64,000 nt of DNA from an uncultured delta proteobacterium (GCA_963696385.1 CAVOKF010000005.1:1-64000); one strand, 5' to 3'; counted from the stretch's first letter, positions 50,819 to 64,000 are shown. Notes: generated by a model from the letters alone, not told the origin. Made by a program: numbers and translations.

Positions 50819-50935
50819 GTGGCGACCATTTCGTTTTTCGCTCGTTCGACACACTGAAACGAGTAACGTGGCGGCCGCGCTAGCGGCCGTTGGCGAGCCG
50901 TGTTCGATAGCGCCAGTTGGAGGCATCGCAAAGCG

Positions 50936-51541
50936 ATGAAGGTGGATAAGGACAAGATCGTCGTCGGAGACAGTGGCTATCCGGTCATGCACGAGATGTT
51001 CGTGCCGAAGGCGATATTCTTCACCAACGGCGTTGGAGTTCACAAGGATCGCCTTTCGTCTTTCGAGCTCGCCCTGCGCGACGCCGGTATCGAGAAAGCG
51101 AACCTCGTCACCGTCAGCTCGATCTTTCCGCCTCGATGCAAAGAAATGAGCCGCAAAGAGGGCGAAAAGCTCATTATGCCCGGTCAAATCGTGCACTGCG
51201 TGATGGCACGGCAAGACACCAACGAACCGAATCGGCTCATCGCTGCTGCAATCGGCCTCGCGCGCCCTGCTGACAAGGACCGTTACGGATATTTGTCCGA
51301 GCACCATAGCTACGGTGAGACCGCGAGAAAGGCGGGCGACTACGCCGAGGACCTCGCAGCAACGATGCTAGCGACCACGCTCGGGATCGAATTCGACCCC
51401 GAGAAGGCCTGGAACGAGCGCGAGCAGGTCTTCCGGCTCGAAAAGACGATCTTGAAGACGCGCAATATCGTCCAGAGCGCTGAAGGTCATCCCAAGGGTA
51501 CGTGGTCAACCGTCATCGCCTTGGGGGTCTTCATTTTTTAG
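50936..51541 (+). CDS. pdaD: Pyruvoyl-dependent arginine decarboxylase
   Basis: [25 protein letters not shown] (Ser-Ser self-cleavage site); [18 protein letters not shown]. Confidence 0.85.
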
Positions 51542-51597
51542 GTCTTCCGGCATGCTTCCCGGGTCGAGGTGCCGCGCGTACGAGTCGATGGGTCGGC

Positions 51598-51864
51598 TCA
51601 GTCGGAACGACCGTAGACCTCGTCGATGACGCGTTTGAGCCGAACCCCATAAACGATGGCGAACGTGTCGCGGCTGCCGGGGAAGAGTTCCTCGGCGCGG
51701 GCCGCGACGGCGTCTACGATGGCTTCCGCGTCGCCCCGTGTCACATCGCCCGCACGAATGGTGATCTCGGCCCAATCGACCGCGCGGCGAAGCAAATAGA
51801 CGCGTTTGGTCTCCTCGCGACCCTCCGGGCTCCGCAGGATCTGGATGGCCTCCTCGAGCGTCAT
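51598..51864 (-). CDS. Small hypothetical protein
   Basis: GAGG RBS; LFPG...F..VY..RL.RVI.E; co-oriented with the ATP-grasp gene. Confidence 0.6.
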   Translation of the reverse strand: MTLEEAIQILRSPEGREETKRVYLLRRAVDWAEITIRAGDVTRGDAEAIVDAVAARAEELFPGSRDTFAIVYGVRLKRVIDEVYGRSD

Positions 51865-51877
51865 CCTCGCCCGTAAA

Positions 51878-53104
51878 CTATAGCGATCGCCGCGCGCCTG
51901 ATCGAGTCGACGCCTGAATCTCAGCGGGCTCGCCAAGCCGTCGCCGCCGCAGCGCGTAGCGCACCAAAAGGCGGACGAGTGCGGCGAAGTCGATTCCGAC
52001 GACCGCTGCGGCGCGGGCGATCCCCGCGTTCGGCGACAAGTCGCAATTGGGGTTCACGTCGACGACGTAGGGAATGCCACTCGATGCGAGGCGAATGTCC
52101 ACGCGGCCGTAGTCCCGCACGCCGACGGCGCGGAACGCCTCCGAGGCCACTCTGCGAACGCGGGCCGCGACCGCAGTCGGGAGAATCGGGTGCATGACGG
52201 GCACGGTCCCCAGATCGTCGACTGAGCCGATCGTCCATTTGGCGTCGTAGGAAACGATGCGCGGTGCGTCGGGCGGCAGTGCCGTGAAGTCGATCTCGCT
52301 CAGCGGGAGCACGCGTGGCGTGGGATGTCCGAGCAGTGCGACGTTGAACTCGCGACCATCGATAAACTGCTCCACGAGGCACGGCTGCCGCAATTTTGTG
52401 ACGACTGCATGCACCGCCCGCGAGAGCTCAGCGGAGCTGCCCACCACGCTCGTTGGCGCAATGCCAACCGACCCGTCCTCGCGCACTGGCTTGACGATCA
52501 GCGGGAATGCCAGATCGCACGGCTCGCCCGCGCTTGCGAGGACGCGCCCTGCGGGAGTTGGAATTCCCGCCTCTTCCAGGCGCTGCTTCACTCGATCCTT
52601 TCGAAGCGCAAAGCTCAGCACCTCCGGCGGCGATCCGGTGTACGGGATCCCGAGAAGACCGAGAAAGAGCGGCACGGCGCTCTCGAGCCTGGCATCGCCG
52701 GCAAGCGACTCGCACAGGTTGAATGCGCAGTCGACGTCGAGGTCCGCAAGGCGAGTCCTTAGACCCACGAGATCACCGTCGACCGGGACCAGGTGCGCCT
52801 CGTAGCCCGTTCCGGTCAGCGCACTTGCCACACTGGTAGCGACGAAGCGCACCTCCGCGCGCGCCGCCCACGCGGGATCCACTTCAGGGCAGCCGTCCTC
52901 GTAGTCGACATTATGCAGGACCGCCACGCGCTTGGTTGCGCGGTTGCGCTTCGATGGAGGCCGCCGATCCGAGGTCGTTTGAGCCGGAGCGGCTGGAGGC
53001 AACTCGAACATCATGACTCCGTCGTCCTTCGGTGGGGCGCGCGCCAGCGGGGTGACAACATGCGCCCTTCTTTGCGAATCTACCGGCCTACCGATCTTGG
53101 TCAA
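51878..53104 (-). CDS. D-Ala-D-Ala ligase-like ATP-grasp enzyme (non-canonical)
   Basis: FNLCE; IPYTGS; IVKPVREDGSVGI; EQFIDGREF; YGRVDIR; VDVNPNCDL; true start probably near 53014. Confidence 0.85.
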   Translation of the reverse strand: MTKIGRPVDSQRRAHVVTPLARAPPKDDGVMMFELPPAAPAQTTSDRRPPSKRNRATKRVAVLHNVDYEDGCPEVDPAWAARAEVRFVATSVASALTGTGYEAHLVPVDGDLVGLRTRLADLDVDCAFNLCESLAGDARLESAVPLFLGLLGIPYTGSPPEVLSFALRKDRVKQRLEEAGIPTPAGRVLASAGEPCDLAFPLIVKPVREDGSVGIAPTSVVGSSAELSRAVHAVVTKLRQPCLVEQFIDGREFNVALLGHPTPRVLPLSEIDFTALPPDAPRIVSYDAKWTIGSVDDLGTVPVMHPILPTAVAARVRRVASEAFRAVGVRDYGRVDIRLASSGIPYVVDVNPNCDLSPNAGIARAAAVVGIDFAALVRLLVRYALRRRRLGEPAEIQASTRSGARRSL

Positions 53105-55446: not shown

Positions 55447-56946
55447 GTGCGCCGCCGCCCCCTTCGTCTTGGAAGCAGCACGATTTTCGATCTTCTCGTC
55501 GCCCTGTTCGCGTCCACGCCCGCCTGGATCGTGAAGCATCCCCCGCTTGAAGATCTGCCGCTGCACCTGGCAACCATTCGAATCATCAAGAGCTTTCACG
55601 ACCCAGTCTTCCGGTTCGACCAGTACTTCGTGCTGACGCTCGGACGGACGCAGTACGTTCTCTACTATTTGGCCGGTGCGGCCCTAGCCACTGCAATCGG
55701 CGTAGTCGGGGCCAACGTGGTGCTCATGTCGTCGTACCTCGGCGGGACCATTCTGGCGCTGCGGTCGCTGCTGCAGGCGCTCAACCGCGATGAGCGTCTG
55801 AGCCTGCTTATCATCCCGCTGCTCGTCAACGTGATGTTCGTCTACGGGCTCTTTCCCTTCTTGCTCGGCATTCCCATCATGTTTTGGGCCCTCGGCGCGG
55901 CTGTGCGTCACTTCGAGCGGCTGTCCATTGGGACCAGCATCCTTCTAGGTACCTTGGCGCTGGCGCTCTTTTACTCCCACATTTTTCCGTTCGGAATTTT
56001 CTGCATCGGCTTCGCCGCGATGTTTCCGTGGGGTAGACCGTCCCGCTGGCTCCGCGCGGCCACTCCCGTCGCCCCAGCTTTCGTTGTGCTGGTATCGTGG
56101 ACGTTGCTCACCAAGGCGGGCAAGCTCGTGAGCGCTGCAGCCACGGACAACGGCGGGGATCCGCGGTTACCCGTCGACGCTGCGATCGAGCAAATTCCGA
56201 AATGGTTCACCAATGTGCTCCGCGACACTACCGACGAGGTGACGGTCGTAGCCCTCGCGATCGTGGTCGTAGCGGCTTTCGGTTTATCGCTCGGAGATTC
56301 CGATCATCCCAAGGCTCACGTCCGCGCATACACGGCGCTTCCGGTCGCCTGCATCGTGCTGTACTTTCTGTTGCCCCAGGGACACGGCTATATCTGGCTC
56401 ATCGCGCAGCGGTTTCCGATTCTGTTCGCGATGACGGCCATTCCACTCGTCAGGATGCCGCGCGGAGCACGCGGGCATGTGGTCGCCTTCGCAGCTCTCG
56501 CCGTCGGCGTGAGCTCGATCGTCAATACGTGCCGACACTTCATCCGATTCGAGGTCGAGGAGGTTGGCGACATCGACGACGTCATCGCCTCCATGCAGCC
56601 GGGCCGAAAGGTGTGTGCCCTCATCTACGACAAGGGGTCGGCCATCGTGAACAATCAGCCGTTTCTCCACTTTGGTTCATATTATCAAGTACGAAAAGGT
56701 GGCGTGGTCATGTTCACATTCGCCGGGTACGCGCACTGGCCCGTCGATTTCCAGCCGGGCAAGTACCCGCCGCCGGGCGGTCCCGCCCGCTTGCGATGGG
56801 AGTGGACCCCGGAGTCTGTGCCAATCTCGGAAGTGTATCCGTACTACGATTATGTGCTCAGCCGCGGTGCTGGTTTCCGGCCCCCGCCCGGCACGTACCA
56901 TCCGGCGTCACGCTCGGGACGCTGGACCGTTTGGGCCAAGGACTGA
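55447..56946 (+). CDS. Polytopic membrane protein, possible GT-C glycosyltransferase
   Basis: PPLEDLPLHL in the first loop; about 11 TM segments; QRF motif; soluble C-terminal domain. Confidence 0.5.
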   Translation: MRRRPLRLGSSTIFDLLVALFASTPAWIVKHPPLEDLPLHLATIRIIKSFHDPVFRFDQYFVLTLGRTQYVLYYLAGAALATAIGVVGANVVLMSSYLGGTILALRSLLQALNRDERLSLLIIPLLVNVMFVYGLFPFLLGIPIMFWALGAAVRHFERLSIGTSILLGTLALALFYSHIFPFGIFCIGFAAMFPWGRPSRWLRAATPVAPAFVVLVSWTLLTKAGKLVSAAATDNGGDPRLPVDAAIEQIPKWFTNVLRDTTDEVTVVALAIVVVAAFGLSLGDSDHPKAHVRAYTALPVACIVLYFLLPQGHGYIWLIAQRFPILFAMTAIPLVRMPRGARGHVVAFAALAVGVSSIVNTCRHFIRFEVEEVGDIDDVIASMQPGRKVCALIYDKGSAIVNNQPFLHFGSYYQVRKGGVVMFTFAGYAHWPVDFQPGKYPPPGGPARLRWEWTPESVPISEVYPYYDYVLSRGAGFRPPPGTYHPASRSGRWTVWAKD

Positions 56947-57049
56947 CGGTGTAGCGACGCAGGCCGCGGGCTCAAGCTATAAAACTCATGCGCGCGTCTT
57001 CGCGAGGATTATGCCAGTCTCGCTTGCTCCAGCACGACGGTTCGCCCCC

Positions 57050-58207
57050 TCAGATGCTGCTGTTGAGTGGGTCGAACTTACTGCCGCCCGTTGTGAAGGT
57101 CGTGGACTTGCTCTTCGTGGTGGAAGCGCCGTGCGCCGCGGCAGGAGCCGCGCCATGGGCCTTGTGCTTCTTCGACTTTGCCTTGTCGCTATCTTCGACG
57201 TGCGTCTTGTGATCGACGACCGTAAGTTGATCGGTAAAATGAGGGCTCAGTGGCGAATCCGATGGAGGACCAGTGAGGGGAGTGGGCGCAGTAGCCTCTG
57301 CTGTCGCCAAGGGCGGGGCGATAGCGGGAGTCGGCTCCGCGGCCGGTGGCGGCGGTGGCGGTGCAACCCCGACAGCAGATTCCTGTGTTGCTCCCCGCAA
57401 GCCGACGCGCGCCAAATAGGGCTGCGCCCATCGCGGGCGCTGAACGGCTACGGCGGCCAAGCTCCCAACGATCGCCACAGCGACCATTGCGCCGAACCAG
57501 CGCTTTGCGGAGCCGCCGCGAAGCTTCGCCATGTCGGCGTCAATCTCACCAAAATCGACGCTCAATGGGCGCAGGCTGGTGAGGATTGGGCTCCCCGGAC
57601 CCTGTGCGGCAAATCCCGAAGTGGCCCCATTCACCATGTGTGATGCTGGGCTAGACGCAAGGCCGTAGACAAAAGGCTGACCCGCCAACGCGTGCTGAGA
57701 GGAGACGTCGGACGCGTTGGGGCCAGGCTGCGGGATTTGCGACGGGGTCGCCATTCGGCGACTGGCCGCAGCGACGGTGTCGGGCGACGGCGCTCCGAAA
57801 GGCAATTGCGCGACTCGCAGGGGAGCTACCTCTGCCTGAGGTATGGGGTATGCGGGCACACCGTTCGGGATGCCAACCTCGCGTCGGGTCATTTGCGCCG
57901 GGGGCGAGGTCGGTCGCGAGACATCCGTCGCGTGCGCACCGGGCTCCAGCGCCTGCACGTGTTCGGGAGCTGCTGAGTTGGGCGCCGATCCCACGGGCGC
58001 CGACTCGATCAGCTCGACCTCGTCGGTGTCGTCGTCGATGCCAGCGAGCGCGCCGAGCTTCGTCCACTGAGTCGCGCCGGACGCCAGCACCATCGTCTCT
58101 CCGTCGATGTGCCCCGCTTGGAAGGCCTCGTCCAACTGATCGAGCGTGACGCGATGCACGTCCCCGTCAGAGAGCTTTACATACCAATGATCGCCGCTTG
58201 TGCTCAT
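57050..58207 (-). CDS. GYF_2-like domain membrane protein with Pro-rich linkers
   Basis: WYV...VTLDQLDEAFQAGHIDGETMV...W; single TM; C-terminal FDPLNSSI. Confidence 0.65.
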   Translation of the reverse strand: MSTSGDHWYVKLSDGDVHRVTLDQLDEAFQAGHIDGETMVLASGATQWTKLGALAGIDDDTDEVELIESAPVGSAPNSAAPEHVQALEPGAHATDVSRPTSPPAQMTRREVGIPNGVPAYPIPQAEVAPLRVAQLPFGAPSPDTVAAASRRMATPSQIPQPGPNASDVSSQHALAGQPFVYGLASSPASHMVNGATSGFAAQGPGSPILTSLRPLSVDFGEIDADMAKLRGGSAKRWFGAMVAVAIVGSLAAVAVQRPRWAQPYLARVGLRGATQESAVGVAPPPPPPAAEPTPAIAPPLATAEATAPTPLTGPPSDSPLSPHFTDQLTVVDHKTHVEDSDKAKSKKHKAHGAAPAAAHGASTTKSKSTTFTTGGSKFDPLNSSI

Positions 58208-58341
58208 GCGCTGCTCCTTCAACACGCTCGAGGCGGTTAAACACTATAGCCCGTTGAAGCGTCGGTAGGCGCAGAAGGCACGAAAATGACAGGATATGCA
58301 ATGACACGAGATAATTTTCGTCGCACTAAAACCTGGCGGGA

Positions 58342-59367
58342 TCAAGTCGAGCGAATTGGCGCCGTCTCACTTGCTGCCGGGCCCGTGAGCTCGCGTCGCG
58401 TCAAGGCGGCAACGAGCACGCAAATGCCCGCCATCGTAAGTTGGGCGACGTGCGCTACGAAGGCGATCGATAGAGCGCGTGCGGGTGCGTTGCTGAACCC
58501 AAGCGCCCCCGCGAACGTACCGTATGTACCGTCGGCAACGCCGAGCTGATTGGGAATGACATCGCCGATCGTGGCCCCCACCAAGTGGATGCCGTGGGCG
58601 ATGAAGGCGCCTCGGACATCGCCCATGCCGCCGACTGAGGACAACACGACGCCGTACTGGACGAGCTGGCCCGCCCGCGCAATCGAACATGCCACGGCGC
58701 TGCGCCAAGGCAACACGCTGCGAGTCGCAGGCTCGGACGCCGGGTGCGGTTCGCGCTCCCTTAGCCGGTGCCGGAGCAAGCCGGCGGTCCGATGGAACCA
58801 CCGCGCAAGTGGCCCCCCACGCGTGATCTTTAACAGCCCGGCAGCAATAGCGAACATGAGTGCGGCGTTCCCGGCAAGCAGGAGCGCCAACGGCGCGTGA
58901 ACCCCGAAGCTCCATGCGACGACGCCGAAGGCCGCTGCGGACGCAACGGCGATGGCAAAGACGTAAGCTGCTTGCAACTGCGCGCTCGCGTTCGCGGCCG
59001 CAGCTACTCCGATATGCTGAGAGATGAGCGTTGCCCGCGTTACTTCACCGGCGGCGCGCCCTGCGGGAAGGAGGACCATCATTGCGTACGCGATGGCGGA
59101 GGACCGGACCCAGGTCGACGCCGGCACCTTCGCCGACTGGCGCTGCAGCAATGAGCGGAGCGCGACCACGTCGCCCAAGAGCTGCGCCACCTCGAACGCG
59201 AGAATAGTCGGCATCCACGATCGCCCCTGCCACATCACGTGCGCGACCCGCTCCGGACCGGCGCCACGCACCAGGTACGCGAGGAGAACGAGTCCCGCGG
59301 CCGCCAGCAATGACCTGCCGACAGGGCCTCGGAAGGCGGCGATCACGACGCCTGTCGGCCTGCCCAT
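58342..59367 (-). CDS. Lysylphosphatidylglycerol-synthase-TM (UPF0104/flippase-like, HpnL-like) membrane protein
   Basis: LLPAGRAAGEVTRA; IPNQLGVADG; about 8 TM segments; alternative GTG start at 59346 overlaps the upstream stop. Confidence 0.7.
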   Translation of the reverse strand: MGRPTGVVIAAFRGPVGRSLLAAAGLVLLAYLVRGAGPERVAHVMWQGRSWMPTILAFEVAQLLGDVVALRSLLQRQSAKVPASTWVRSSAIAYAMMVLLPAGRAAGEVTRATLISQHIGVAAAANASAQLQAAYVFAIAVASAAAFGVVAWSFGVHAPLALLLAGNAALMFAIAAGLLKITRGGPLARWFHRTAGLLRHRLREREPHPASEPATRSVLPWRSAVACSIARAGQLVQYGVVLSSVGGMGDVRGAFIAHGIHLVGATIGDVIPNQLGVADGTYGTFAGALGFSNAPARALSIAFVAHVAQLTMAGICVLVAALTRRELTGPAASETAPIRST

Positions 59368-60701
59368 TCAGCGATAGCGTGGCGATGCCGCCAAACGCGC
59401 CGAAAGGCCTCGGCGTACCGGTCGACCGTATCGTCGGTTTGGGCGATTAGCGGACAAGACTGCGAAAAGAGCACAAGGGAGCCAGCCAAGAGGCTCCGCG
59501 TCCTCGGATACCGCTCGGGGTCGTAGTTGACGAGCAGGTCCGTACCGTCGCTATGGGATTGGGGAAATCCCGTGGACGAATCGCGCCGCTGAAAGACTGT
59601 TTGGGCGGGTAAGGGTCCCGATTGCCATTGGACTACTTCGAGCCCTTCTGCACGGAGTGCACGGGATACCGCGTCGCGAAAGAGCTCGGGCGGAACGTCG
59701 AGGCCTGCCCGCCTCGGATCGAGGTGGACTCGGAATTTGTGGTGCACAGAGCTGCGTCCAGGCGGAACATGCGGCGGCGTGACACCGTCCAGCTCGGACA
59801 AGGCCAGCGACAGCCGTTCGGCGTTTCGCTGACACCGTTCAGTTCGCTCCGGCAATTCGGCGAGCTGCGCTCGTGCGAAAGCCGCCATCATCTCGTTTCC
59901 GCGGTACATTGAGCCCACCCGACAAGAGTCCAGAGCTCGCAATCCGTCGAGCGGTCGACGCGGATCGTACCCCGCAGCCTCGCCGCGCGAGAGATCTTGC
60001 CCGAAGTTTCGCAGCGAATTCGCCTCCTCAGCGATCGATGCGCTGCTTGTCACCAGGATTCCCCCTTCGCCCGCCGGCAAATTTTTGCTTGATTGCAGCG
60101 AGAAGGCGCCGGCCGTAGCTATTGCGCCGACGCGCCGGCCCTCGAACTCGGCCCCATGGGCTTGGGCCGCATCTTCAATGACGAGTAAGTTGCATCTCCG
60201 CGCGACTCCCATCAGAGCGGCCATGTCGGCCGCGCAGCCGTGCATATGAACCGGCATGAGCGCCCGCGTCCTGGCAGTAACAGCGTCGGAGGCGGCGCCC
60301 GGATCGATGCACCCGGTGAGGGGATCCACGTCTGCGAACACCGGTACTGCGCCAACGTGGATCACGGCTAGAGGTGTAGCGACGAAGCTGTAGGCAGGAA
60401 CAATCACTTCGTCGCCCGCACGCACTCCGGCGGCCGCGAGGGCGATCGCGAGAGCGCTCGTTCCGCAATGTGTCAGCAGTGCGTATTTGACTTCTGCGAA
60501 CTGGGCGAATTCTGCTTCGAGAGCTATGGCTTCCGGAGCGAAGGGTCCCGAAAGGATGCCACGATCGAGAACTCGGGTGATGGCTCGTCGCTCGTTTTCG
60601 GTAATGAGCGGCCACAGCCGGTGCGCCTCTCTACCGATTACGGGAGTCCCTCCGAAGAGGGCGAGGTCGGCGGTGCGGGACGCGGTTCCCGCTAAGGTCA
60701 C
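59343..60701 (-). CDS. DegT/DnrJ/EryC1/StrS PLP aminotransferase (StsC/BtrR/MosB/RifK-like)
   Basis: LALFGGTPV; GTSAL; GDEVIVPAYSFVAT; IEDAAQAHGA; FSLQSSKNLPAGEGG (PLP Lys); GTG start overlaps the ino1 stop (GTGA). Confidence 0.9.
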   Translation of the reverse strand: MTLAGTASRTADLALFGGTPVIGREAHRLWPLITENERRAITRVLDRGILSGPFAPEAIALEAEFAQFAEVKYALLTHCGTSALAIALAAAGVRAGDEVIVPAYSFVATPLAVIHVGAVPVFADVDPLTGCIDPGAASDAVTARTRALMPVHMHGCAADMAALMGVARRCNLLVIEDAAQAHGAEFEGRRVGAIATAGAFSLQSSKNLPAGEGGILVTSSASIAEEANSLRNFGQDLSRGEAAGYDPRRPLDGLRALDSCRVGSMYRGNEMMAAFARAQLAELPERTERCQRNAERLSLALSELDGVTPPHVPPGRSSVHHKFRVHLDPRRAGLDVPPELFRDAVSRALRAEGLEVVQWQSGPLPAQTVFQRRDSSTGFPQSHSDGTDLLVNYDPERYPRTRSLLAGSLVLFSQSCPLIAQTDDTVDRYAEAFRRVWRHRHAIAEWAGRQAS

Positions 60702-61954
60702 TGCGTGGGCCCCAGGTGGGACTTGGCGCCGTTCGATTGCGAGAGTGCGCGGCTCGTCGCATGCGTCCGTGCCCACTCGAGCAGCAGCTTCTCCTGCTTG
60801 AAAAGGTCGTGGACCGGTGCCTCTCCGGGCGCATGGTACGGAGACTTGAAGAACATCGATAGCTGCCGCTGAATACCCCGTTCGCCCTGTCGTTTCGCGA
60901 CGTCGAGCAGGCGAACGAGATCGATAACGAGCGGTGCGGCGAGAGCCGAGTCCTGACACAGGAAGTTGACCTTGATCTGCATCGGGATTCCGGCAAAACC
61001 CACGATGTCGATGTTGTCCCACGCCTCTTTGGAGTCGCCGCGTGGCTTGTAATAGTGAATGTGAACTTGGTGATTGTCCACGTGGTAGCCCACGATCGAA
61101 TCGAGCACGGCGGCTTTGCTCATGACCTTCGTCTTGTTTGACGATGGCGCGTCGAGTGCCAACCCGTCGCTGTTGCCCAGGACGTTGGTCGAGTACCAGC
61201 CCTCGATGAAGAGCCGCCGCGCTCGGAACATGGATGCCAGCGCCGTTTTCAGCAGCGTCTGGCCGGTTTTCCCGTCCATGCCAGCAAATGGGTTCGCCAT
61301 CTCGTTTGCGTGCTGTTCGAGTGCCGGAACGTTGGTCAAGCTCGGTGTGAAGTTGCAGTACGGGATTTGGAGCTGGTTTGCCGCATAAAAATACCTCATC
61401 GCGGGCGAAATCTCCGGGTCACTCGTATCTAGACCCGCGTGGAACGCACGCAAGTCACGGTGCACGGGCTGTACTTCAAGGAAACGTTCGGTGGACGCGA
61501 GGTTGACCATCACGACGCGATCCAGGCCGTGCTCTTTCTTGAACGACTCCATCTGGCGTTGGACGATGGCGATCTGCTCGCGATGTGTGCTCGCGGCGAT
61601 GAGATTGCCGCCGTCGATGTTTTCGCAGTACGACCTTGCAAATACCGCTGGCCAGGGTCGCACTCGTTCCAGATCCGGGCGCACCTTTTCGAGTACGTGC
61701 TCGAGAAAGACCCCGTGATGGAGCGCGCCTTCATAGACGTTTGCATACTTGAGATCCCATCCTCCGAAGACGAGGTTCTCGAGTGGAGCGAAATCGAGAA
61801 GCTCGGTGATGGACTCGGCGATCCGCGCGTCAGTCCGCTCGGTGACCATCCCGATGCGCGGCACGATGCCACGTTTCATCAGTTCCACGCCGGCGATCAC
61901 GGTCGATGCGACGGCTCCGTTTACTCCAATGATGGCGACCCCGATCCGGTTCAT
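60698..61954 (-). CDS. ino1: Myo-inositol-1-phosphate (inositol-3-phosphate) synthase
   Basis: VFGGWD; NLASTE; DGKTGQT; WYSTNVLGNSDG; RGDSKEAWD; DSALAAP; FFKSP. Confidence 0.93.
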   Translation of the reverse strand: MNRIGVAIIGVNGAVASTVIAGVELMKRGIVPRIGMVTERTDARIAESITELLDFAPLENLVFGGWDLKYANVYEGALHHGVFLEHVLEKVRPDLERVRPWPAVFARSYCENIDGGNLIAASTHREQIAIVQRQMESFKKEHGLDRVVMVNLASTERFLEVQPVHRDLRAFHAGLDTSDPEISPAMRYFYAANQLQIPYCNFTPSLTNVPALEQHANEMANPFAGMDGKTGQTLLKTALASMFRARRLFIEGWYSTNVLGNSDGLALDAPSSNKTKVMSKAAVLDSIVGYHVDNHQVHIHYYKPRGDSKEAWDNIDIVGFAGIPMQIKVNFLCQDSALAAPLVIDLVRLLDVAKRQGERGIQRQLSMFFKSPYHAPGEAPVHDLFKQEKLLLEWARTHATSRALSQSNGAKSHLGPTQ

Positions 61955-61996
61955 GGCTACTTGCCTCGTGCGCGATGCTTGACGGGTCCGTGGCGC

Positions 61997-63649
61997 TTAT
62001 TGTGCCGCGTACTGCCAAAGCAGTTGTTTCTTCGTGTCGTCGATGATGCGCGGGAACTTGCCTTGCACGTTGCCGCCCGTAACCTGTGCGAGGAAGCGGC
62101 GCGCTCCACCGCTAGCGAGCAGCACAACGCGCGCAGGGAGCAAGGCGACGTCGTCCTGGCGGTGCTCGCGGTAAACGCGGTTCTGCATCCTCAGGCCCTC
62201 GTCGAAGGCGTTGGCGAACGCCCTGATGTCGCCGGGGGCGGCTCCTTGATGGAACTCGATGAACAAGATGTACCGACACTTCGCGCTGCCGTCGATACCG
62301 ACTTCCGCGCCGGCCCCGAAGTCGACCGCGGTGCCAGGATGGGCCGCGAGTGCATGAGTGACCGCCTGCTCGATTTCAACGTGGGTCGTAAGCTCTTGGG
62401 TCAACGAAAGGCACCCGGATAAGCGGCCTGCGAACTCGATGCGTAATGGATCGACCGACGCGAAGCGGACGATGTCCCCGAGCTCGTAGGCGTACAGGCC
62501 CGACGCCGTTGTGACCACGATGGAATACAGGCGATCGCGTTCGACGGACCACAGCGGAACACGAGCCGCGTCCGGGTCAGCGCGTCTCTCGATCGGAACG
62601 AACTCGAAGAATGTTCCGCGGTGCGGGATCATCAACATCCCGTCCGCTCCCGAGAAGTCGGACGCCGCGTAGACGCCACCTTCCGTGGCGTTGTACGTGT
62701 CGACCAGCGTGAAGTCGTTGCGCCCCATCAGCTCTCTAATGACGGGCAGATACGGCGCTGCAGCGACTCCCCCGCCGAAAAGGACTCGCAAGTTGGGCCA
62801 CACCTCAGTTATGCCTCGGACGTTTCGCCCGCGTGCGCGGGCTGCCGCTCGCACCTTCTCGAACAGGAGGCTGAACCAGCACGTTGTTCCGACGACCGCG
62901 CGCACGTCGTAATCAAGGTAGCGCGCGGCGATCACCGCGAGCTTCTCATCGTAGTGTTCAATCGTTCGCACGTCGCGCTCCGGTAAGTACACCGGTCGCG
63001 TCACGAGTGGCATCTTCGTCATCATGAGAGCCGGATTCGACGTTACGAGCGCCGGACCGTCCCTCCGCATCGTTGTTGGCGGAAAGAGGCCGAGCGTGAA
63101 GCCGCGGAAGAGGTCTGCATCTCGCGACCATCGCATATACCGCATCAGGGTGTCCGAGCCCGCGCGTTGCTGGAAGCGGATCTGGAGGTCCGTAATGGGT
63201 AAGAATTTGGACTTGCCGTCGCTTGAGCTCCCTGACGAATTGCCGAAATAGCGCACGGCGTCAGGGACGAGCACACCGCGTTCGCCCGCGCGCATGCGAT
63301 CGATGAGGGGCGAAAACGAGTCATAGTCACCCACTCGTACGCATCGAGCGAATGAATCGTAGTCACGGATGTGCGAAAATTCGTGCGCACGCCCGTACTC
63401 CGTTCGCGCTGCGCGACGGAGCAGCGACAGGAGAATAGTCTCTTGCGTCATTCGCACGTCTGCCAGTGCGGCGTCCCAGGCCTGCACCTGAAGACGCGCG
63501 ACGTGACGCAGCGCGTGGCCGAAAAACCTTGGGTAGGGGGATCGAACCAGCCTGCGCGCGTGGTTAGTTGACGCGGCTCCCTCGGCGCGGCCACCGTCGA
63601 CGCGCGCAGGTGCTTCTTGCGACAGCTCGTTCATCTGACGGGACGTCAT
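61997..63649 (-). CDS. GH3-family acyl-adenylate-forming amide ligase
   Basis: Motif I NSSGSSSDGKSKFLPIT; motif II DTYNATEG; FFEFVP; motif III GLYAYELGDIV; FAGR; N..Y..HR; QGKFPR. Confidence 0.88.
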   Translation of the reverse strand: MTSRQMNELSQEAPARVDGGRAEGAASTNHARRLVRSPYPRFFGHALRHVARLQVQAWDAALADVRMTQETILLSLLRRAARTEYGRAHEFSHIRDYDSFARCVRVGDYDSFSPLIDRMRAGERGVLVPDAVRYFGNSSGSSSDGKSKFLPITDLQIRFQQRAGSDTLMRYMRWSRDADLFRGFTLGLFPPTTMRRDGPALVTSNPALMMTKMPLVTRPVYLPERDVRTIEHYDEKLAVIAARYLDYDVRAVVGTTCWFSLLFEKVRAAARARGRNVRGITEVWPNLRVLFGGGVAAAPYLPVIRELMGRNDFTLVDTYNATEGGVYAASDFSGADGMLMIPHRGTFFEFVPIERRADPDAARVPLWSVERDRLYSIVVTTASGLYAYELGDIVRFASVDPLRIEFAGRLSGCLSLTQELTTHVEIEQAVTHALAAHPGTAVDFGAGAEVGIDGSAKCRYILFIEFHQGAAPGDIRAFANAFDEGLRMQNRVYREHRQDDVALLPARVVLLASGGARRFLAQVTGGNVQGKFPRIIDDTKKQLLWQYAAQ

Positions 63650-63677
63650 AGTCCCTGAGGTGACCGATGCTCAAGGA

Positions 63678-64000
63678 TCAAGCGCGGTCCAAAATACGTG
63701 ATGCTGCGTAATCGGCGAGCGTGACCACGGTGTCGATTGGGTTGAAACGTACGCAGCTCGGGAAGATCCTCGCGTCGCATACGAAGAGGTTGTCCACGCC
63801 ATGGATGGCCAAATCCGCTTCCACCGCGCGGACCTGCGGGTTGGACGAACAGGGGGTGCCTCCCTGCGGATGTGCGCAGAGCGCGCCGCGCCGAGTCGAT
63901 AGGATGGGCTCGTCGAGCATCGAGAGCCCCCTACGACGTCGCCCTGCACGGAAGGGGTGTCTGGAGAGCATCACGCTGCGAGCTCCGGACCCGGAGAAGG
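63678..64000 (-). CDS. GMC-family FAD oxidoreductase, C-terminal part (5' end outside the window)
   Basis: Frame is open to the window edge; AHPQGG...HGVDNLFVCDARIFPS..RFNP..TV..LA.YAA.RI is the GMC C-terminal signature. Confidence 0.75.
   Translation of the reverse strand, partial: FSGSGARSVMLSRHPFRAGRRRRGLSMLDEPILSTRRGALCAHPQGGTPCSSNPQVRAVEADLAIHGVDNLFVCDARIFPSCVRFNPIDTVVTLADYAASRILDRA

Follow-up and report, generated by a model that had tools for sequence, protein, structure and literature searches.

Within a 64,000-nucleotide stretch from an uncultured delta proteobacterium (GCA_963696385.1, CAVOKF010000005.1:1-64000; the window), the last genes form a minus-strand operon that encodes a GH3-family ligase, a myo-inositol-phosphate synthase (MIPS), a DegT/StrS aminotransferase, and a membrane protein of the LPG_synthase_TM family. 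We conclude that the operon belongs to a real, conserved, and undescribed pathway, with a partner set larger than a first-pass annotation of the sequence had seen. MIPS cyclises glucose-6-phosphate to inositol phosphate, and the GH3 family adenylates acids and then forms an amide. What the pathway makes is a reasoned prediction from gene integrity, linkage, co-distribution, motifs, and folds. Our leading proposal, which is tentative, is that the product is an envelope lipid free of phosphorus, an N-acyl-aminocyclitol (inosamine amide), with a GMC oxidoreductase and an aldehyde dehydrogenase (ALDH) acting on the acid side.

The window opens contig C5 (G000:C5:1-64000) of a 6.9-Mb host genome (G000), and close homologues of the operon proteins carry the Polyangiaceae label. 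The features are as follows.

58342..59346, minus strand: LPG_synthase_TM (flippase-like) membrane protein, 334 aa, GTG start overlapping the DegT stop; Pfam PF03706
59343..60701, minus strand: long-form DegT/StrS pyridoxal phosphate (PLP) aminotransferase, 452 aa, GTG start overlapping the MIPS stop; Pfam PF01041
60698..61954, minus strand: dedicated MIPS, 418 aa; Pfam PF07994/PF01658, best PDB match 7NWR
61997..63649, minus strand: GH3-family acyl-acid amido synthetase, 550 aa; Pfam GH3 N/M/C, nucleotide-binding motifs, and fold
63678..64000, with homology to contig position 64010, minus strand: pseudogene remnant of a type-A GMC oxidoreductase, C-terminal ~110 aa

The gene layout that had been read from the sequence was seen in full: five minus-strand frames, gaps of 28 bp between GMC and GH3 (63678/63649) and 42 bp between GH3 and MIPS (61997/61954), and stop/start overlaps, each GTGA, at MIPS-DegT (60701-60698) and at DegT-membrane protein (59346-59343). 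Every Pfam family assigned by the first-pass annotation also scored above its cut-off, with GH3 N/M/C at 116/59/39 bits, the MIPS domains at 226/116, DegT at 263, LPG_synthase_TM at 39.1 (cut-off, 33.4), and GMC_oxred_C at 37.2. The GH3, MIPS, DegT, and LPG-type genes are intact and coupled, and purifying selection acts on them; the ratio of nonsynonymous to synonymous substitution (dN/dS) between the host and its nearest relative (G003) was 0.12, 0.04, 0.14, and 0.20 for the four. Promoter and terminator scans of the locus gave results near chance level.

The operon recurs well beyond the host. Our samples were 61 related genomes, 401 Myxococcota genomes, and 31 fetched loci, of which the relatives gave 20 and the phylum sample 11. 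A DegT orthologue was present in 31 of the 61 relatives, including 27 of 30 members of the host genus, and MIPS revealed five further carriers in which DegT is frameshifted or cut by a contig end (G029, G030, G037, G047, and G049), for 36 carriers in all. The conserved co-occurrence on which the original interpretation depended holds, as the four-gene order GH3-MIPS-DegT-LPG is complete in 25 of the 31 Myxococcota loci; GH3 precedes MIPS in 27, MIPS precedes DegT in 30, and the LPG gene directly follows DegT in most. Across the phylum sample, GH3 was found in 15 genomes from four families and the DegT orthologue in 13, all 13 with GH3, and the contigs of the two GH3-only genomes end within MIPS or DegT. 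The recurrent neighbours in the fetched loci were an HpnN-like MMPL transporter (18 loci), inositol monophosphatase (IMPase; 15), ALDH (7), type-B GMC (6), and intact type-A GMC (5). Within the host genus only, an Omp85-domain gene recurs beside the operon, and several members keep the operon at a fixed site near thrS. A GTDB search for related loci returned 23, all labelled Myxococcota or delta-proteobacterial. Among 80 metagenome and 79 viral loci, GH3 was present in none and MIPS was beside DegT in two, and phage and plasmid matches reached 39% or less. Atlas searches contributed family names only.

Relatives of operon genes were also seen in other settings. A divergent MIPS (35-36%) directly precedes a DegT of the same clade at L113:1-3084 and L109:360-2351, and in L113 a geranylgeranyl-reductase-family gene precedes the pair. 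A second, divergent DegT of the clade (46%), missing part of the long loop, lies at L090:8763-10598 (G430:C132) without partner genes. An extra operon-type MIPS (72%) without DegT lies at L321:2958-10813 (G012:C22), beside genes for a PMT-type glycosyltransferase, a START-like protein, and MMPL. As for RNA, nine runs contained a small share of operon words, and contigs ~94% identical to the operon, from a relative, cover its core in four peat metatranscriptomes from four studies. One RNA-library contig of 4,152 nt spans window positions 59517-63624 at depth 60, although such a contig does not prove a single transcript. Positions 57000-58400 and 63786-64000 were left uncovered, which bears neither way.

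The GMC gene had been taken as an intact member of the operon, and this was not borne out. Followed past position 64000, the frame is open for just 125 codons from stop to stop, and the remnant aligns only with residues 387-497 of a relative that is intact at 497 aa, apart from short pieces in other frames. The window copy is thus not a full-length GMC with an FAD (flavin adenine dinucleotide)-binding N-terminal domain. The nearest relative carries the same remnant with in-frame stops, and dN/dS between the two is 1.45 over 79 codons. The ThrRS gene, thrS, starts at contig position 64651 on the plus strand, 640 bp from the remnant. A gene merely cut by the window edge is ruled out by the 125-codon frame, the position of thrS, and the stops in G003. 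The sequence past 64,000, to which the first-pass annotation had looked for further operon genes, holds the end of the short GMC frame and then thrS on the plus strand.

A GMC enzyme nevertheless probably belongs to the pathway, though not in the form first claimed: dead as the window copy is, all 36 carriers hold one of two GMC types, A or B, and never both together. Intact type A (70-79% to the query) occurs in 6 of the 61 relatives, always just before GH3, and type B, a protein of about 630 aa with a fused PF13618 domain, occurs in the other 30 carriers (the tallies include two unpublished genomes, G027 among the six type-A and G010 among the type-B). Outside the host genus, type-B orthologues were found in the six carriers, and the non-carrier G048 gave one ambiguous, contig-cut match at 48%. 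An ALDH orthologue is present in 29 of the 36 carriers and 0 of the 25 non-carriers; by type, it accompanies 29 of 30 type-B carriers (in G026, the one without it, GMC-B lies at the end of a contig) and none of the six type-A carriers. In the phylum sample, the top tier of ALDH matches (53% or more, with two contig-cut at 61-62%) comprises exactly the 15 GH3-positive genomes, and the next match is at 50%. The 16 carrier ALDHs tested formed one branch in a quick tree (SH-aLRT 99). In G219 and G037, the core lies between ALDH and GMC-B, all in one orientation; at one locus only, that of G219 (L091:3366-4820), a cytochrome P450 gene is divergent from ALDH-GH3-MIPS-DegT-LPG-GMC-B. In the host, GMC-B and ALDH are intact and unlinked to the operon (C4:745487-749007, with GMC-B at 747160-749007), which explains why the type-A copy could decay. 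On a 33-row tree the type-A label required four changes, at least two of them forced, and the scatter of type-A carriers suggests that B and ALDH were probably lost more than once. The distribution fits oxidation of an alcohol to an aldehyde to an acid, with type A doing both steps.

Both GMC types presumably resemble LaoA and the fatty alcohol oxidases. On a plasmid, a relative of GMC-B (30%) forms part of a subunit-3/GMC/ALDH cassette, and a PDB search with GMC-B gave weak generic matches, pyranose oxidases among them. The small gene that precedes GMC-A was compared with the N terminus of GMC-B and gave an hhalign probability of 0.9%. The LaoABC system for long-chain alcohol oxidation in Pseudomonas aeruginosa, as described in a paper that cites it (PMC13291428), pairs a two-subunit alcohol dehydrogenase with an ALDH. 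Both GMC-A, with the small gene that precedes it, and GMC-B, with its fused PF13618 domain, plus ALDH, resemble that layout, but the role described for LaoABC is catabolic (PMC13291428).

The operon MIPS is of the Bacteroides/Archaeoglobus type (7NWR, 314.5 bits). It has both Pfam domains and the catalytic lysines: residues K229, K276, K280, K309, D335, and K370 are invariant in 15 alignment rows, and lysine is kept at the two positions where alanine has replaced it in the A. fulgidus entries 3QVW and 3QVX. A five-membered cyclitol synthase (Ari2 type, 6K96) was rejected at 50.6 bits versus 314.5 for 7NWR. Because 27 of the 36 carriers hold a housekeeping-type MIPS, the operon copy is usually not needed to supply inositol, although G057 and G034 yielded no other MIPS. 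The second host MIPS (C4:357674-358960), 43% identical to that of the operon, adjoins genes for a PIP-dihydroceramide-synthase-like protein (148 bits; cut-off, 480), PgpA, and MMPL, and the cluster (G000:C4:353600-358960; L043:7609-13114) is probably an inositol phosphoceramide cluster. A synthase-like gene was present in 9 of 30 short loci around the housekeeping MIPS. A phosphotransferase gene is absent from the operon and present beside the second MIPS, and the host genome encodes five CDP-alcohol transferases. The inositol-lipid pathway of Bacteroides thetaiotaomicron (7NWR; PIP-DAG and PIP-dihydroceramide synthases), as described in PMC10191378, shares the MIPS subgroup and puts inositol into envelope lipids, but its chemistry is that of phosphodiesters, and its counterpart in the host is the second MIPS cluster on C4, not the operon. 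Prediction of a MIPS-DegT complex scored 0.00, which bears neither way.

The aminotransferase had been called StsC-like and assigned to inososes. In support, it falls below every equivalog cut-off for enzymes of nucleoside diphosphate (NDP) sugars (WecE, 177 bits against 375; PseC, 170/423.5; ArnB, 157/650; DesI, 155/631; LegC, 149/420). The PLP lysine, K206, is invariant in the alignment. In a FastTree of 61 rows, 11 operon DegT rows and two MIPS-adjacent metagenome DegTs shared one branch (support, 94), apart from the carrier-protein clusters and from the other DegTs of the host. The likeness to StsC itself is unproven: in a comparison that covered Fic25, Ser5, RbmB, BtrR, and NDP-sugar enzymes, Fic25 was closest. 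By match order, the solved relatives were Fic25 (271 bits) and Ser5, then RbmB and BtrR (169/168), and then NDP-sugar enzymes. Fic25 aminates a carrier-bound dihydroxy-ketone (PMC11726168). The DADH aminotransferases Fic25, Vzb9, and Ser5 (PDB 8GYH-J and 8Y96) are 38-39% identical, with TM scores of 0.83-0.84, and their substrate, by the account in PMC11726168, is a polyhydroxy ketone rather than a nucleotide sugar. They fall outside the operon clade and need amino-group carrier protein and transketolase genes (PMC11726168), which are absent here; indeed, no genes for a LysW-type carrier, RimK ligase, or transketolase were among the recurrent neighbours, whereas they are present in Streptomyces loci L268 and L269. 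RbmB and BtrR (PDB 5W70 and 2C7T), the next tier, are 2-deoxy-scyllo-inosose (DOI) aminotransferases; their profile scores of 255-247 bits exceed those of NDP-sugar enzymes (241 or less) by a small margin, and DOI synthase, rather than MIPS, provides their cyclitol. Fusions of MIPS to DegT were sought and rejected, as the seven long matches checked were tandem DegT, DegT-GFO, or transferase-DegT fusions. P0131, P0134, P0146, P0166, and P0180 are tandem double-DegT proteins of 774-878 aa.

The window GH3 is the only GH3 in the host genome. It has the three Pfam domains and the GH3 fold, with a structure model matching plant GH3 structures at TM scores of 0.77-0.82, and the three nucleotide-binding motifs (NSSGSSxGKSK, TYNATE, and GLYAYELGD, as defined in PMC12493201) are kept in 18 sequences. 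Handling of the product at the membrane, a further suggestion of the first-pass annotation, is backed by MMPL in 18 of the 31 loci. A fusion of LPG to MMPL in G057 was considered and not supported. The cluster IMPase lies at varying positions and on either strand, and not in the host operon.

How might these genes work together? On the amine arm, MIPS would turn glucose-6-phosphate into inositol phosphate, as its family and its catalytic lysines suggest. The ketone could come from the keto intermediate of MIPS itself or from an unlinked dehydrogenase, and this is the weakest step. DegT would then aminate the inosose or inosose phosphate, and phosphate may be stripped by the inositol monophosphatase, encoded in the locus in kin and perhaps replaced by a generic SuhB in the host. 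On the acid arm, the distribution suggests that GMC oxidase and ALDH convert a lipophilic primary alcohol to a carboxylic acid and that in six relatives type-A GMC replaces both GMC-B and ALDH. GH3 would adenylate the acid and join it to the cyclitol amine, much as OlsH does with free fatty acids, and the LPG-TM protein and HpnN-like MMPL would move the product outward. We propose that the acid is lipophilic, with sterol, ether-lipid, and fatty-alcohol origins all candidates. Sterol as an obligatory or general donor is rejected because only 4 of the 13 DegT-positive genomes of the phylum sample had a match at the level of oxidosqualene cyclase. The host itself has a sterol cluster (G000:C8:421191-428026; L103:11191-18026) with oxidosqualene cyclase (DCTAE motif), squalene synthase-like, squalene epoxidase, and MMPL genes, and a cyclase match occurs in only 3 of 29 genomes of the same family.

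Several observations weigh against the inosamine amide lipid. The substrate of the nearest solved aminotransferase is an acyclic ketone bound to a carrier (PMC11726168), and OlsH prefers ornithine (PMC12493201). The operon MIPS shows no consistent active-site change from the housekeeping copies in the alignment. No NAD-dependent inositol dehydrogenase was among the recurrent neighbour families (singletons were not all scanned), and the best host match to IolG was 134.8 bits against a cut-off of 355, so the favoured version does not account for the ketone. Close orthologues of the cluster IMPase are absent from the host (best match, 36%), and the nearest host MMPL (55%) is unlinked to the operon. 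Carrier counts overstate the number of events because kin are not independent. Finally, G451 and G452, whose completeness was not given, have GH3-LPG-MMPL and ALDH with no MIPS, DegT orthologue, or type-A/B GMC. GMC therefore tracks the cyclitol genes there, and GH3 evidently can exist without inosamine. In both (L066:7207-14527 and L067:7974-15049), GH3 is immediately preceded, on its own strand, by a UDP-glucose 6-dehydrogenase-family gene and a GT4 fragment, and these loci are presumably a variant with another head group.

Perhaps GMC, of either type, is instead the inositol oxidase that gives the inosose, as first proposed, with ALDH separately supplying the acid from a lipid aldehyde and the product the same. 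Such a role would fill the missing oxidation step, and it agrees with the presence of GMC in 36 of 36 carriers, with the joint absence of MIPS, DegT, and GMC from G451 and G452, and with the existence of GMC enzymes that act on sugar ring hydroxyls, such as the pyranose oxidases among the weak PDB matches. It would, however, need repeated block loss of a gene in use, as ALDH is missing from all six type-A genomes in more than one lineage; moreover, GMC-B and ALDH stay paired when moved away from the core, and the family context, from the plasmid cassette to LaoAB as described in PMC13291428, is one of alcohol and aldehyde oxidation. We consider this version unlikely as a whole, and, despite G451 and G452 pointing to the inositol side, we lean modestly toward GMC serving the acid side with its co-distributed ALDH. 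Far less probable is a uronic acid on a glycolipid, in which GMC and ALDH would oxidize C6 of a hexosyl-lipid and GH3 would amidate the uronate with inosamine. The dehydrogenase-family gene and GT4 fragment of G451 and G452, which lack GMC, would suit it, but GT4 matches there by its N-terminal domain only, ALDH is retained, the pattern is confined to two related genomes, and the 31 main loci share no recurrent glycosyltransferase. Counting these two readings with the favoured one, an N-acyl-inosamine lipid is a somewhat probable product.

Alternatively, GH3 might make an ordinary N-acyl amino acid, and the MIPS-DegT product might go to another molecule, perhaps to form the aminated head group of an inositol phosphoceramide. 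The characterised GH3 enzymes described in PMC12493201 and PMC12971839 all use amino acids, GH3-LPG-MMPL occurs without MIPS and DegT in G451 and G452, GH3 lies on another contig in G034, and the host has the PIP-dihydroceramide-synthase-like gene and its five CDP-alcohol transferases. We nevertheless find this quite unlikely: in 27 of 31 loci the gene immediately ahead of MIPS is GH3, the loci show no recurrent phosphotransferase or hydrolase of the OlsI type, GH3 falls below the OlsH cut-off, and the co-distribution of ALDH would be left unexplained. The product could also be a secreted small molecule, an antibiotic or signal, since known inosamine amides, such as hygromycin A (PMC10949010) and the nabscessins (PMC11364655), are described as secondary metabolites, the nearest relatives of the aminotransferase come from natural-product clusters, and the spread is patchy (15 of 401). 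Near universality in the host genus, the fixed site near thrS, and purifying selection make this improbable, as do the lipid-type transport partners, and no polyketide synthase, nonribosomal peptide synthetase, regulator, or resistance gene recurs.

Neighbouring genes of the window were also noted. A GYF_2-domain proline-rich protein (57050-58225, minus strand) and an unannotated 499-aa membrane protein (55447-56946, plus strand) are encoded downstream of the operon, in synteny within the host genus only. Positions 50900-53104 hold genes for a pyruvoyl-dependent arginine decarboxylase and a D-Ala-D-Ala-ligase-like ATP-grasp protein, with no operon link seen. About 6 kb past thrS-infC comes the dcw cell-division cluster, mraZ to ftsZ (G000:C5:70156-86946; L001, L002). 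Elsewhere in the host, G000:C8:160150-172200 (L044) is a possible glycolipid cluster, with genes that read from sequence as UDP-glucose dehydrogenase, epimerase, membrane glycosyltransferase-like, MMPL, and further glycosyltransferases.

Why the operon matters depends in part on its product. It offers a small, defined set of genes for a predicted class of lipids in myxobacteria that abound in soil and peat and have poorly known envelopes, it makes testable whether MIPS-aminotransferase pairs yield inosamine without a dehydrogenase, and the locus shows a two-for-one oxidase replacement caught during decay. If the proposal is true, GH3 chemistry would be widened beyond amino acids, and there would be a route to N-acyl aminocyclitols free of coenzyme A (CoA). 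It is possible, if doubtful, that all its parts hold at once: a new phosphorus-free N-acyl-inosamine lipid class with the first cyclitol-amine GH3, a dehydrogenase-free MIPS-aminotransferase pair, an acid made by GMC and ALDH, and GH3-LPG-MMPL as a general amidation and export module with exchangeable head groups. No description of the GH3-MIPS-DegT set was found in the open-access literature, in line with the first-pass view that no characterised pathway has it, which leaves room for a known myxobacterial lipid of this kind.

Two known systems come closest. OlsH (Sinac_1599), the lyso-ornithine lipid synthetase of Singulisphaera acidiphila, uses ATP and free fatty acids to make N-acyl ornithine (PMC12493201), and the statement that bacterial GH3 substrates are largely unknown is thereby outdated. 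Within E. coli cells, OlsH was silent. The operon GH3 is like OlsH, as described there (PMC12493201), in fold, motifs, and membrane-lipid setting, and we liken it to OlsH also in ATP-dependent amide formation from a free acid, with no CoA or acyl carrier protein. Unlike OlsH, it has no OlsI or OlsG partner, with no OlsI-type alpha/beta-hydrolase in the window operon or among the recurrent neighbours; it scored 200.9 bits (relatives, 247-265) against the cut-off of 620 for the OlsH equivalog (NF052613). It is instead coupled to MIPS and an aminotransferase, and the amine is therefore probably a cyclitol.

The inosamine of hygromycin A ends N-acylated through an amide link. Its aminocyclitol arm, as described in PMC10949010, comprises the Hyg18 MIPS, Hyg25 phosphatase, Hyg17 dehydrogenase, and Hyg8 aminotransferase, and the operon shares with it the route from glucose-6-phosphate to inosamine by MIPS, phosphatase, and aminotransferase. 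This trio is found here, with MIPS-DegT in 30 and IMPase in 15 of the 31 loci, though the latter not in the host operon. Set against the arm in PMC10949010, no Hyg17-type NAD dehydrogenase recurs, GH3 would form the amide, and GMC/ALDH and lipid transporters replace the tailoring genes. The operon is a member of neither system, as it falls below the OlsH cut-off, has no OlsI, and has no Hyg17-type dehydrogenase; by analogy, it appears to work like OlsH joined to the aminocyclitol arm of hygromycin A.

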